Shown here: in pieces, positions 23,110 to 52,367 of the stretch
Numbering within the stretch: position 1 is the stretch's first letter
Layout: every line of letters starts with the position of its first letter
Source of the DNA: Turneriella sp.
Lineage (GTDB): Bacteria > Spirochaetota > Leptospiria > Turneriellales > Turneriellaceae
Reading direction: 5' to 3'
Assembly (NCBI GenBank): GCA_965279515.1
Contig: CBDIID010000003.1
Location: 3,296,001 to 3,360,000, forward strand
Length of the DNA stretch: 64,000 nucleotides
Position numbers and translations under genes: made by a program
Notes under the pieces: model-generated
The model's input: the letters and a program-made list of their open reading frames with translations, nothing else
Databases searched by the model: none
Told to the model about the DNA's origin: nothing

Positions 23110-24276
23110 TCAGACCTGCATTACCTGTTTTTGCACAACCGCGCGTGCCGCTTTGTCATAGTCCATGAGGCCTTCGATGGTATTAAAATCGCGCTTTTCG
23201 AATGTTGTGCTGAGGGCGCGTTCGATGAGTTCAGAGATCTCGCCAAAGCGGATATCCCCCGCAAGAAAAGCGGCGACCGCGGCTTCGTTGGCGGCGTTGA
23301 AGACCGCGGGAAAATATTTGCCCTGGGTACCCGCACTTCGCCCCAGCGCATACGAACGGAATTTTTTTTCATCCACCGGGAAAAATTCGAGCGCGGGGTA
23401 ATTGGCCGGCGCTTTCGCGGCTACGCAGACTTTAGATTCCTGCGGGTAATACATCGCATACGCTATCGGGTAACGCATATCGGGCTGGCTCACATGCTGT
23501 GTCACGGTACCGTCTGAATATTCAACCATCGCATGCACATAGCTCTGCGGATGGATTACCGCCTGAATTTTTTCGTAAGGCAGGTTGAAAAGATAATGTG
23601 CTTCTATCACTTCGAGCGCCTTATTGGTAAGGCCGGCGGAATCGACGGTGATTTTCTGTCCCATCACCCAGGTCGGGTGTTTCAACACAAGTTCTTTCGA
23701 GGCATTGTAAAAGTTATCGCCGTGGACATGCAGCAGGGGGCCGCCGCTGGCTGTGAGGTATGTGCAGCTAACCCCACCCCCGCCCCTCCCCTTATAGGGG
23801 AGGGGTGAAGACGAATCGCTCCCCCCTATAAGGGGGGAGCCGGAGGGGGGTTCTAAAAGCCGCCACAGGCTCGAGTGCTCTGAATCGATGGGCAGAAACT
23901 TTGCCCCGTTTTTGCGGGCGGCGGCGTTGACGACTTCGCCTGCAATGACGAGGCTTTCTTTGTTGGCGAGTAGAATGGTTTCGCCGCGGTTCGCCGCCTC
24001 GAGGGTGGTGGTGACGCCGGCCGCACCGACGATGGCAATGATGATAAAATCGTGCTCCAGGTCGAGTAGCGCGCGGGTTTTTTCCGCAGCGTCGGGTGAG
24101 GCTGTCGAAAACGATTGTCTGACGTTAAATTCGCGGGCAATCCCACTTGCTTTTTCTTCATTGTTGTGCCAGGTAAAGCCAACCAGCTCAAAGTCATCGC
24201 CGTGCTGGCGCAGAATATCAAGCGTCGAGTCGCCGATCGAACCTGTTGCACCGAAGAGAAGGAATTTCTTTTTCAT
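23110..24276 (-). CDS. dxr: 1-deoxy-D-xylulose-5-phosphate reductoisomerase (with repeat-encoded insertion)
   Basis: GATGSIG, LANKE, PIDSEH, TASGG, HPTWVMGQKITVDSA, NKALE, NAANE. Confidence 0.97.
   Translation of the reverse strand: MKKKFLLFGATGSIGDSTLDILRQHGDDFELVGFTWHNNEEKASGIAREFNVRQSFSTASPDAAEKTRALLDLEHDFIIIAIVGAAGVTTTLEAANRGETILLANKESLVIAGEVVNAAARKNGAKFLPIDSEHSSLWRLLEPPSGSPLIGGSDSSSPLPYKGRGGGGVSCTYLTASGGPLLHVHGDNFYNASKELVLKHPTWVMGQKITVDSAGLTNKALEVIEAHYLFNLPYEKIQAVIHPQSYVHAMVEYSDGTVTQHVSQPDMRYPIAYAMYYPQESKVCVAAKAPANYPALEFFPVDEKKFRSYALGRSAGTQGKYFPAVFNAANEAAVAAFLAGDIRFGEISELIERALSTTFEKRDFNTIEGLMDYDKAARAVVQKQVMQV
23770..23852. repeat. Inverted pair of family-1 (CCCCTCCCC) palindromic units inside dxr
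   Basis: CCCCTCCCC-TTATA-GGGGAGGGG (23783-23805) and GCTCCCCCC-TATAA-GGGGGGAGC (23818-23840); unit 1 near-identical to 38208-38244. Confidence 0.9.
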
Positions 24277-37277: not shown

Positions 37278-38234
37278 ATGAGATACATTCGATTAAGTTA
37301 TGTTTTCGTCCTGATTGTTTCAGCGGCGCTGTTTTGCAGCTCGACCCAACAGAAGCAGGCCACTGATACCGGTAAAAAAACTTACCTGCGCGGACTTTAC
37401 TTGCCCGTGCGCAAGGGAGCGGGTGACTCGCGCAATCTGGATTTCGTCAAATCTACCGTCGCACGCGGTAAGCCTCTCGGCATCAACGCATACGTGCTCG
37501 ATGTACAGGCATTCCAGGGAAATAAGAACAAGGTAAATCCGGAAGTTGTGGCCTACCTGAAGTCAGAGCAAATCTATACGGTCGCGCGCGTCGTTTGTTT
37601 CGAAGGCGGTATCAAGAAGTTCCCGGTACCACAACCTCATCTCGATAATTTAGCGGCTTTGGTAGAAGAGGTCTCGCAGCAGGGCTTCGACGAAGTGCAG
37701 CTCGATTACATCCGTTTTGCAGACGAAGGCGTGCGTGTGTCGCTCAGGAAAAAATACGAATTTCTCGACCAGTTCATTGCGAGTATGCGCGAAATCACGA
37801 AGCGTCGTAACGTGAAACTCTCCGCCGATATCTTTGGCCGTATTGTGTATAACAAAGACGACATGATTGGCCAGAAACTCGAGAATTTCGCGAAACACAC
37901 CGATGTCATCTATCCGATGCTCTACCCCAGCCATTTCACGGCTGATAAAAAACGCCTTTCAGATCCGGGCTTTACGGTGAAAGAGGGCACCGAAAACGCC
38001 ATCAACCGCCTTCAGGGAAAAAACACCGAAATCATGCCCTGGGTGCAATGTTTCGTCTACAATATCCAGCATGCGCGGGTGAACCTCACGCAGTATGTCG
38101 TTCTGCAGGTTGAAGGCGTCGAAAAGACCGGCGCGCGCGGTTGGGTGGCGTGGAATGCAAAAGGCGATTATAAAGAAGTCTTTCAGGCTCTCGAAAAAAT
38201 CAGCCAAACCCCACCCCTTCCCCTCCCCTTATAG
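37278..38234 (+). CDS. Putative glycoside hydrolase (DUF4015) lipoprotein
   Basis: Signal ending LFC; ARVVCF, GFDEVQLDYIRF, SADIFG, IGQ, PMLYPSHF, PWVQ, WNA. Confidence 0.82.
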   Translation: MRYIRLSYVFVLIVSAALFCSSTQQKQATDTGKKTYLRGLYLPVRKGAGDSRNLDFVKSTVARGKPLGINAYVLDVQAFQGNKNKVNPEVVAYLKSEQIYTVARVVCFEGGIKKFPVPQPHLDNLAALVEEVSQQGFDEVQLDYIRFADEGVRVSLRKKYEFLDQFIASMREITKRRNVKLSADIFGRIVYNKDDMIGQKLENFAKHTDVIYPMLYPSHFTADKKRLSDPGFTVKEGTENAINRLQGKNTEIMPWVQCFVYNIQHARVNLTQYVVLQVEGVEKTGARGWVAWNAKGDYKEVFQALEKISQTPPLPLPL

Positions 38235-38292
38235 GGGAGGGGTGCATATTCCCCCTCTCCCTATGAGGGAGAGGGGGCTAGGGGGTGAGGGT
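38208..38292. repeat. Inverted pair of family-1 palindromic units between convergent genes
   Basis: CCCCTCCCC-TTATA-GGGGAGGGG (38220-38242) and CCCCCTCTCCCT-ATG-AGGGAGAGGGGG (38251-38277); supplies the TPPLPLPL tail and TAG stop of the DUF4015 gene. Confidence 0.9.
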
Positions 38293-39482: not shown

Positions 39483-39490
39483 CTAAATGT

Positions 39491-39528
39491 CCCCACCCCC
39501 GGCCCCTCCCCGCATGCGGGGAGGGGGG
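39491..39528. repeat. Family-1 palindromic unit between dnaN and recF
   Basis: CCCCACCCCCGG-CCCCTCCCCGC-AT-GCGGGGAGGGG. Confidence 0.88.
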
Positions 39529-39563
39529 CCTGGCAGGCAGGTGGGGATTGAGTTCGAGTCACA

Positions 39564-50206: not shown

Positions 50207-50430
50207 AAAAAATCCCCCCGCGCCGCCTGAGCGAGCTGAAAGCCGGTGAAACGGCCACCATTCGGGAAACCCCCACGGGCAATGAGCGCCTCGCAGAAAT
50301 CGGCATGATCAAAGGCGAAAAAGTCACCTTCGTGAAGACGGCTCCCCTCGGCGACCCGGTGGTTTTGCGCATTTTGGATGCTCCCATCATCGTGCGCCGC
50401 GTCGACATTGAAATGGTTTTGGTCGATTGA
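50203..50430 (+). CDS. feoA: Ferrous iron transport protein A
   Basis: LSELKAGE, RLAEIGM..G, APLGDP. Confidence 0.93.
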   Translation: MKKIPPRRLSELKAGETATIRETPTGNERLAEIGMIKGEKVTFVKTAPLGDPVVLRILDAPIIVRRVDIEMVLVD

Positions 50431-52367
50431 TGCGAGTTGCGCTACTTGGAAATCCCAATGCAGGTAAGACGACGGTCTTCAACGCGCTCTGCGGCACGCA
50501 CCAGCAGACCGGTAACTATGCCGGTGTCACGGTTGAAAAGAAAACCGGCGAACTGAAAGGCCACGATGAAATCGAAATCATCGACCTGCCGGGTACGTAT
50601 AGCCTGAAGCCCAAATCGGCCGACGAAGAAATTACCGCGGCGGTTCTGGCTGGCGGCGCCGAAGAGAAAAAACCCGACCTCGTGGTCGCCGTTCTCGACG
50701 CCTCAAATCTCAAGCGCTCGCTCTATCTTTGTTTGCAGGCCAAAGAAACCGGCATACCCATGATTGCCGCAATGACCATGAGCGATATCGCCACGCGGCG
50801 CGGCATCAAAATCGATCTCGTCCAGTTGCAAAAACAATTGGGATTTCCCGTTGTGGAAGTGACTTTGGCAACCAAGGGGCAAATCTCACAGCTTTCTTCC
50901 GCAATTGCGGCTTCTGCCTCCAGCCCCCCTCCCCGTTTACAGGGAGGGGCGGGGGGTGGGGACATCGACCAACGCTACGCTGAAGTGGATCGCCTTTTGC
51001 GGAAATGCCTCTCTAAAGAGAAAACCGGTCGCTCGATTTCGGAAAAGATTGATGCCGTTCTGACGCACCGCCTGCTCGGTTTCGTGGCTTTTACCTTAAT
51101 CATCGGCGGCATGTTCTTCAGCATCTATGCGGGCGCGCGACCGGTTATGGATACCATCGACGCTGGTATGAAATCGCTCGGCGGTATGCTGCGCGGGGCT
51201 CTTGGGGCATACCCCGTGACCTCATCGCTGCTCTCCGATGGCGTGCTCGCTGGTGCGGGTTCTGTTTTTGTTTTTGTACCGCAGATTATGATTCTCTTTT
51301 TCTTTATCTCTGTACTCGAAGAAACCGGCTATCTCGCGCGCGCCGCCTTTCTCATGGATAAATTACTCGGCTGGACGGGACTCAACGGCCGGGCCTTTAT
51401 TCCGCTTTTATCGAGTTTTGCCTGCGCCGTACCCGGTATTCTTTCGGCCCGCGTGATGCCCAGCGACCGGGCACGTATGGCGACGATTCTCATCGCCCCC
51501 CTCATGTCATGCTCCGCCCGGCTGCCGGTCTATGTGCTCTTTATCGGTGCCTTTATCGAGCCGCGCTTTGGTGCGCTGTGGGCTGCCGTGACACTCTTTG
51601 GCATGCATCTCGTGGGCATTGTCGTGGCGATGCCGCTGGCCTGGCTACTCAACCGTAAGATTCTCAAAACCGGCACAAGCCCGTTTATTCTTGAACTGCC
51701 CGAATACCATGCACCGCACTGGCCCAATGTCATCCGCCGCGTTTACGATGCGGCGAAGAATTTTCTCACGCGCGTCGGCACGATCATTTTCGCGTTGTCG
51801 ATTGTCATCTGGGCGCTGGCCTATTTTCCGCATAAACAAACAACCTATGACAAAGAGCTGGATCGCTTTGCGAAAGAAGCGGGGGTTGGTAAGGGGGTGG
51901 TGTTAACCACCCCCTTAAATTCACAATTTGAGAACGATCTGCGGGCGGCTTACCTAAAGGATAGTTTTCTCGGGACCTTTGGCCGCGCGGTCGAGCCCAT
52001 ATTCCGCCCGTTGGGTTTTGACTGGAAAATCTCGGTGGCGATTCTTGCGGCGTTTCCCGCGCGCGAGGTCTTCGTCTCGACGCTGGGCATCATCTTCAGC
52101 GTCACTGAAGCCAAGGACGATCCGGCGCTCTTGGGCAAAAAACTCAGCGATGAAAAGAAACCGGACGGGAAGCCGGCTTACGGAACGCTTCTGGCGATTT
52201 CTATCATGATTTTCTTTGCCCTCTGCGCGCAGTGTATGAGTACGCTGGCAACAATCCGCCGGGAGCTCAACAGCACAGGCTGGGCAGTTGCGATCTTCTT
52301 TATTCTAACCGGTATCGCCTATATAATTTCGCTCGCCGTCTACCAGATAGGTTCGAAACTGGTATAG
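50430..52367 (+). CDS. feoB: Ferrous iron transport protein B
   Basis: GNPNAGKT, GNYAGVTVE, DLPGTYSL, GYLARAAF.MD, SCSARLPVY, FILELPEY, AREV. Confidence 0.97.
   Translation: MRVALLGNPNAGKTTVFNALCGTHQQTGNYAGVTVEKKTGELKGHDEIEIIDLPGTYSLKPKSADEEITAAVLAGGAEEKKPDLVVAVLDASNLKRSLYLCLQAKETGIPMIAAMTMSDIATRRGIKIDLVQLQKQLGFPVVEVTLATKGQISQLSSAIAASASSPPPRLQGGAGGGDIDQRYAEVDRLLRKCLSKEKTGRSISEKIDAVLTHRLLGFVAFTLIIGGMFFSIYAGARPVMDTIDAGMKSLGGMLRGALGAYPVTSSLLSDGVLAGAGSVFVFVPQIMILFFFISVLEETGYLARAAFLMDKLLGWTGLNGRAFIPLLSSFACAVPGILSARVMPSDRARMATILIAPLMSCSARLPVYVLFIGAFIEPRFGALWAAVTLFGMHLVGIVVAMPLAWLLNRKILKTGTSPFILELPEYHAPHWPNVIRRVYDAAKNFLTRVGTIIFALSIVIWALAYFPHKQTTYDKELDRFAKEAGVGKGVVLTTPLNSQFENDLRAAYLKDSFLGTFGRAVEPIFRPLGFDWKISVAILAAFPAREVFVSTLGIIFSVTEAKDDPALLGKKLSDEKKPDGKPAYGTLLAISIMIFFALCAQCMSTLATIRRELNSTGWAVAIFFILTGIAYIISLAVYQIGSKLV
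50924..50961. repeat. Family-1 palindromic unit inside feoB
   Basis: Minus strand CCCCACCCCCCGCCCCTCCCTGTAAACGGGGAGGGGGG; encodes PPPRLQGGAGGG. Confidence 0.82.
51879..51917 (+). repeat. Family-2 palindromic unit inside feoB
   Basis: GCGGGGG-TTGG-TAAGGGGGTGGT-GTTA-ACCACCCCCTTA, perfect 12-bp stem. Confidence 0.7.

Follow-up and report, generated by a model that had tools for sequence, protein, structure and literature searches.

How does a palindromic repeat come to lie in frame inside the gene of a housekeeping enzyme, and what becomes of the enzyme? The question is raised by dxr, the gene for 1-deoxy-D-xylulose 5-phosphate reductoisomerase (DXR), in a nearly complete 4.9 Mb genome of Turneriella sp. 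(G000). The gene lies in a stretch of 64,000 nucleotides, referred to here as the window. An initial annotation of the window described a pair of palindromic repeats at 23770-23852, translated within dxr, and proposed that a recently active REP-like family adds peptide loops to housekeeping enzymes in this lineage. The features discussed below are collected in Table 1.

Table 1. The dxr gene, its repeat element and other copies of the repeat family in the window.
Feature	Positions	Strand	Remarks
dxr (1-deoxy-D-xylulose 5-phosphate reductoisomerase)	23110..24276	-	intact host gene, 388 aa, frame open
Two-unit repeat element	23770..23852		83 nt, AACCCC/GGGGTT ends; plus one base, codons for DXR E142-V169
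Unit 1 of the dxr element	23771..23807	+	C-rich third strand and hairpin 23783-23805; 10-nt class II intrastrand-triplex motif, 0 mismatches on minus strand
Unit 2 of the dxr element	23818..23852	-	inverted relative to unit 1; hairpin 23818-23840 and third strand; 9-nt triplex motif, 0 mismatches on plus strand
Second two-unit copy	38207..38291		gives last codons and stop to ORF 37401-38234
Intergenic copy	39488..39541		another subtype (GT ends, GCATGC loop)
One-unit copy	50919..50964	+	in frame in feoB (50430-52367), after the GTPase domain

The coordinates and the encoded peptide given for the repeat pair proved right, and of the six frames only that of dxr can be read through the element without a stop. 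Because this frame is open, bypassing of the insert by ribosomes was dropped as an explanation. The peptide ends needed correction: the repeat itself ends at V169, the S-C-T-Y that follows is host sequence, and T172 had been omitted. Unit 1 was recomputed to differ at 2 of 37 nt from the copy at 38208-38244, the same value as before. The stems of the element are perfect although the synonymous sites of dxr are saturated, and its folding z is -5.8 on the coding strand and -4.4 on the other.

The host gene is sound. DXR scores above the TIGR00243 cut-off, dxr has one match across the genome, and its dN of about 0.18-0.29 against a dS of 1.4-2.9 or saturation indicates purifying selection. The residues of the catalytic motif are present. 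An AlphaFold model has a mean pLDDT of 90 and superimposes on solved DXRs with TM 0.83-0.89; residues 143-166 fall below 50 and are flanked by helix 132-141 and strand 169-176. IspG was found in the genome, and a search of it for HMG-CoA reductase found none. Together with the single copy of dxr and the purifying selection on it, this makes it probable that the host needs the enzyme and, judging from the sequence, that the loop encoded by the repeat is translated. A single insertion of this kind in dxr is probably neutral.

The repeat was not simply inserted, as had been supposed. It replaced host DNA: 84 nt stand where congeners with a 19-residue linker have 24 nt, a net gain of 20 aa, with no target duplication. 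The TTAG found on both sides of the repeat was rejected as a duplication, for it overlaps the usual end of the family. In this genome, the linker that joins PIDSEH to LTASGG has 39 residues. Among the 13 congeners it measures 31 residues in G004 and G007, 27 in G001, 24 in G013, 23 in G012 and 19-20 in the rest (the dxr of G003 is frameshifted and that of G009 is cut by a contig end). The earlier view that this linker is normally short thus fits the 19-20 residues of 7 of 12 complete congener alleles, but not the range of 17-24 in other genera or the 28-29 residues of two solved gammaproteobacterial DXRs; the linker is variable rather than simply short.

Within the genus, this one loop occurs in four states: with a two-unit repeat, with a one-unit repeat, with a host palindrome, or unstructured. 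The one-unit subtype is found in G004 and G007, at junctions nearly those of the repeat studied here. With the loop removed, a dxr gene tree of 13 rows, from which G003 and G009 were omitted, rejects a single clade of G000, G004 and G007 (AU p 4.5e-7) and does not reject a G004+G007 clade (p 0.26). One insertion shared by the three genomes is thereby rejected, with the reservation that conversion of the loop only could mislead the test; the backbone of the species tree is weak (support 19-57). In a strict scan across 185,579 species genomes, 6 matches were obtained. Three of them are dxr loops, belonging to the two congeners and to a planctomycete, an Anatilimnocola MAG in which a related hairpin occupies this same DXR loop. 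For this loop, that makes two or more arrivals of the repeat family within the genus and one in a planctomycete. Subtypes also differ between congeners in the loops of fmt, feoB, hrpB and xdhB.

How widespread is the family in this genome? A core-pattern search, proposed by the initial annotation and carried out here, gave 3 matches in the window, where 100 shuffles gave 0, and 27 genome-wide. Hairpin scans (83 and 69 loci) missed bulged copies, and a profile built from the genome's own copies was used in their place; it found 216 units of at least 10 bits, against 0 in the reversed chromosome. These form 102 loci, of which, by a simple custom gene caller, 14 lie within genes, 34 over a gene end and 54 between genes. 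Since the chromosome is about 87% coding, yet so few loci are inside genes, the coding copies are tolerated survivors and not the main habit of the family. Copies are 35-120 bp long and encode varied, Pro/Gly-rich peptides on either strand. They have short terminal inverted repeats, i.e., C-run and G-run ends with subtype-specific dinucleotides: each loop sequence goes with an end dinucleotide, and AA/GA, GT or CG precede the C run. A 4-nt direct repeat flanks 5 of 47 elements (control 9%), so that target duplication is at chance level. One end falls at a stop codon in 33 of the 102 loci, compared with 3.6% of random intergenic positions. An Rfam search of the window at gathering scores matched no family, and ORF 37401-38234, which borrows its end from a copy, has no NCBIfam match.

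Host genes include fmt, hrpB, feoB, tilS, dsbD, xdhB and genes for RsmB-like and MnmC-like methyltransferases and allantoinase. All 13 hosts tested are colinear with their orthologues across the site, and in 12 of the 13 the repeat is absent from at least one homologue (a PDH E2 site, a weak match, was left out of these alignments). The addition of peptide loops to housekeeping enzymes was thus correctly recognised as in-frame, but host DNA is replaced, the tilS copy brings no net gain, and genes are the minor habitat. Two same-strand gene pairs around elements were considered as broken genes and rejected, being separate genes in G011. In most congeners (L087-L101), the feoB linker is occupied by a copy of the family, by a GTAG-type REP or by decayed forms.

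The label REP-like holds for a dispersed repeat; the family is not of the RAYT type, because the one Y1_Tnp gene of the genome is flanked by another palindrome family. An association of a RAYT/HUH gene with the dxr-type repeat had been anticipated, and RAYT as the partner was rejected on the same ground. This RAYT-like gene (G000:C3:2616100-2616560) has flanking palindromes with the core AATTAATT, copies of which also lie in frame within genes at C3:2617189 and 3638604.

The other partner envisaged, a small endonuclease gene with the repeat on its flanks, does exist. An intact DUF559 gene (C3:3620047-3620370) has a left unit of the repeat on one side and a right unit on the other, and an internally deleted one (C3:3433480-3433775) is enclosed by repeat halves. 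A second DUF559 gene (G000:C3:1444900-1445620) has a complete copy of a related two-hairpin repeat on each side, the two in direct orientation. A survey of 31 related genomes covered 27 DUF559 loci; at 18 of these a perfect C/G hairpin stands no more than 200 nt away, in 13 cases on both sides, as against 1 of 223 control windows, and the perfect-stem rule misses bulged hairpins. Among metagenome relatives, 60 of 80 have a hairpin, against 5 of 50 controls. The type of flank tracks the nuclease clade, with 5 changes, the minimum, compared with a shuffled mean of 13.2 (21 of the 27 loci were used and 6 partial ones left out; labels were assigned by eye, and several rows share a site). Congener cassette sites could be mapped to this genome in 9 of 21 cases: 6 are empty here, 1 is intact and 2, representing one site, are deleted. 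The cassette sites have no evident shared sequence. Cassettes with dxr-subtype halves occur at L052 (G007) and L056 (G005), whereas the nuclease subtype matching the dxr repeat was not found in this genome. Recent activity, as first suggested, therefore agrees with the perfect stems in a gene of saturated synonymous sites, but not with the absence of the matching nuclease here. Whole DUF559 cassettes are also fused in frame in long proteins, at L039 (G013:C8:23329-23649) and L033 (G015:C141:1491-1808), in frames of 1343 and 625 aa.

Palindromes unrelated to the repeat occupy some of the same sites. In the same DXR loop, G003, G005 and G008 have perfect palindromes of 18, 14 and 18 bp, made of host-like coding DNA. 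The G003 gene (L012) also has a one-base frameshift directly after its palindrome, either an error or real. Perfect palindromes stand at the repeat site of hrpB in 4 genomes (17-21 bp) and at that of allB in 2 (19 and 22 bp). Overall, a perfect stem of at least 12 bp is found in 9 of 89 congener site windows, compared with 2 of 1593 control windows, the 18-bp G003 dxr palindrome being counted in addition to the 9; these long palindromes are confined to 4 of the 12 genes, one of them is a known-type REP, and related genomes are not independent. The arms tested, from hrpB and dxr, each occur as a single copy, and another dispersed repeat was rejected as their source. In hrpB, G005 with its repeat falls among the palindrome-bearing G004 and G007, which implies that the palindrome came first there.

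Other tests of this association were weak or negative. At 18 mapped sites with a congener repeat and none here, no stem of at least 10 bp was found, and no outer arms were left over around 47 elements (mean 3.98 vs 4.04). The intergenic link to palindromes is weak (6 of 27 vs 46 of 643, p 0.014): half of the six cases belong to other REP families, and convergent gene ends are a confounding factor. Non-family coding palindromes of at least 11 bp number 25 in this genome, several of them from other REPs, against 13 and 17 in codon shuffles, and the idea that long coding palindromes are common in this genome was rejected on these counts. In the 2.0 of 4.38 Mb of G011 surveyed (C1:1-2000000, L211-L310), there are 164 perfect palindromes of at least 12 bp, 25 of them at least 20 bp and most of them single-copy; this genome holds 80 of at least 12 bp in 4.84 Mb. 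In G011 their GC content is 79% in the inner four pairs and 41% outside them; of 52 triloops, 21 belong to the GNA type, which the mini-hairpins of the repeat also show. They have GC-rich mini-hairpin cores with unique outer arms, and REP copies in G011 have unique inverted extensions of 5-10 bp. These features suggest a fold-back process that copies flanking DNA. Ten of the 164 lie in coding homologues, 8 of which are alignable, and 2 of these fall on repeat sites of this genome; since both were already in the earlier counts, they supply a denominator and no new support.

What, then, is the dxr insert? It probably represents a small mobile cassette that has no gene of its own; the full cassette consists of a left unit, a gene for a DUF559 Vsr-like nuclease, and a right unit. 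The whole reading is that a triplex-type repeat replaced dxr DNA, as the gene-less form of a cassette spread by hairpin cutting and repair copying. We believe and doubt this reading as a whole in equal measure; the cassette origin taken alone is quite probable, and hairpin targeting is the weak step. In the proposed mechanism, the putative DUF559 nuclease would cut hairpin DNA, with a pre-existing hairpin as its target, and repair would overwrite about 25-30 nt with the sequence of a family member. In tolerant loops, selection for an essential enzyme would then retain only outcomes that preserve the frame, and the 28 residues would be translated as a floppy, neutral loop. Hairpin targeting leaves the stop-codon ends of a third of the loci unexplained, which counts against it.

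The same DUF559 cassette origin can also be had without hairpin targeting, if tolerant loops and gene ends gather small repeats and the palindromes are scars or fold-back products formed after repeat loss. Other REP families do sit in the same loops (feoB in G004 and G009; allB in G001), the wealth of single-copy palindromes in G011, with cores resembling the repeat's mini-hairpins, speaks for such an origin, and so do the negative reverse-site and outer-arm tests. The palindrome alleles of dxr and hrpB, however, are homologous across separate clades, show paired changes and have the usual loop length, and for these reasons look older than the repeats nested among them; on balance we find this explanation rather unlikely. 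It is less plausible still that DUF559 genes are passengers inside repeats that spread or convert through host repair at triplex or cruciform DNA. Such an idea gains from the available excerpts of Holder et al. (PMC4666352), in which the motif is tied to local instability and no mobility genes are near it in E. coli, and from G011, which has 12 pattern matches and no DUF559 match. Against it, whole cassettes occupy sites that are empty in relatives, flank type follows nuclease clade, and the pairing recurs in most of the distant loci, making it improbable.

Two further readings concern the dxr locus itself. Any hairpin at this point of dxr might be selected as an mRNA or DNA control structure: a strong hairpin is present in 6 of 14 genus genomes, this one included, in three unrelated sequences whose stems are perfect despite saturated synonymous sites. 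Yet 8 of 13 congeners have neither the repeat nor a long palindrome in dxr, and all 16 outgroup loci read lack a strong hairpin at the loop (stems of at most 6 bp), so we regard selection of this kind as very improbable. Homopolymer-rich hairpins are hard to assemble, and an assembly artefact or a dead gene had to be considered; the former had been named at the outset as what could overturn the observation. Logan contigs of runs X1 and X4, from one sample that is possibly the source of this DNA, cross the dxr repeat with 0 differences (run X7, probably DNA, leaves the insert uncovered). Moreover, the family is found at the same place of dxr in two other genomes, and the frame is open in a single-copy gene under purifying selection. 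An artefact or dead gene is thus largely refuted and barely credible.

Comparison with known systems places the element between several classes; the following relies on the available excerpts of the cited papers. The BoxC/PIT/TM elements (TMECO; Holder et al. 2015, PMC4666352) are there described with a C-rich stem, a loop, a G-rich stem, a short linker and a G-rich third strand, as in the present units, and their pairs are inverted tandems, as in the dxr repeat. The two dxr units, with motifs of 10 and 9 nt and 0 mismatches, fall within the general class II motif of these authors (stem 6-15 nt, loops 1-6 nt, at most 1 mismatch). Exact TMECO membership was rejected: the genome has 0 matches at up to 1 substitution, and dxr unit 1 needs 4. 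Furthermore, TMECO is reported in the same excerpts as always intergenic in E. coli K-12 and without a mobility gene, whereas some loci of the present family are inside genes and its units bracket DUF559.

Rickettsia palindromic elements (RPEs; PMC10969869) and intragenic GTAG/CGTC REPs (PMC3733652), as excerpted, share with the family the presence of a palindromic repeat in frame in unrelated housekeeping genes. RPEs are given as about 150 bp with a conserved peptide, and the shorter, mostly extragenic copies studied here, with varied peptides on either strand and replacement of host DNA, are set apart by description. REPtrons, i.e., a RAYT with its REPs (PMC3733652), resemble the cassettes in having a small enzyme gene with its own flanking hairpin type and many gene-less copies elsewhere, and REP ends can supply stop codons, according to the excerpted text. 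Here the enzyme is a PD-(D/E)xK Vsr-like nuclease and not an HUH tyrosine transposase, and the GTAG/CGTC tag is absent.

DUF559 has been grouped with Vsr and a homing endonuclease (PMC3424549, in excerpt), and Vsr-like (EDxHD) homing endonucleases (PMC2677866, PMC3239194, likewise) belong to the same nuclease fold group. The latter spread by cutting and copy-repair and have hairpins upstream of the gene. The presence or absence of the nuclease gene at orthologous sites is a homing-type trait that the cassettes show. According to the same partial sources, however, homing endonucleases of this group have DNA-binding domains and a fixed cut sequence and reside in phage introns or split genes, whereas the DUF559 described here consists of a single domain of about 110 aa, is bracketed by two triplex-type units and occurs at many unrelated sites. 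Like MITEs, the elements have terminal inverted repeats, but they show no target-site duplication above the control and replace host DNA. Finally, coding palindromes of Nematomorpha mitochondria (PMC6649704, in excerpt) are perfect inverted repeats with both arms coding, like the congener dxr, hrpB and allB alleles; those palindromes reach 284 bp over conserved regions, while the present ones have stems of 14-22 bp in variable bacterial loops and are swapped with mobile repeats. The element thus works like a REPtron or a homing element and behaves in genes like an RPE, yet departs from defining features of each. In the main texts of the openly accessible literature, we found no report of DUF559 paired with these repeats and none of a swap between repeat and palindrome in one loop.

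The dxr loop is a well-controlled natural experiment: a single genus shows one and the same loop of an essential enzyme in four different states. If the reading given here holds, a long-unexplained class of bacterial repeats gets an enzyme, DUF559, a common domain of unknown function, gets a role, and new protein loops can arise through the replacement of hairpin DNA. More tentatively, and with doubt outweighing belief, DUF559 cassettes may constitute an undescribed class of selfish elements, in which a Vsr-like nuclease would respond to the structure of DNA and not to its sequence, cutting existing hairpins that are then overwritten with the cassette's own triplex-type ends. If this is true, a structure-recognising DUF559 would be the missing mobiliser of orphan BoxC/TM repeats, and it would explain the repeated rewriting of the same protein loops, such as that of DXR, across phyla.
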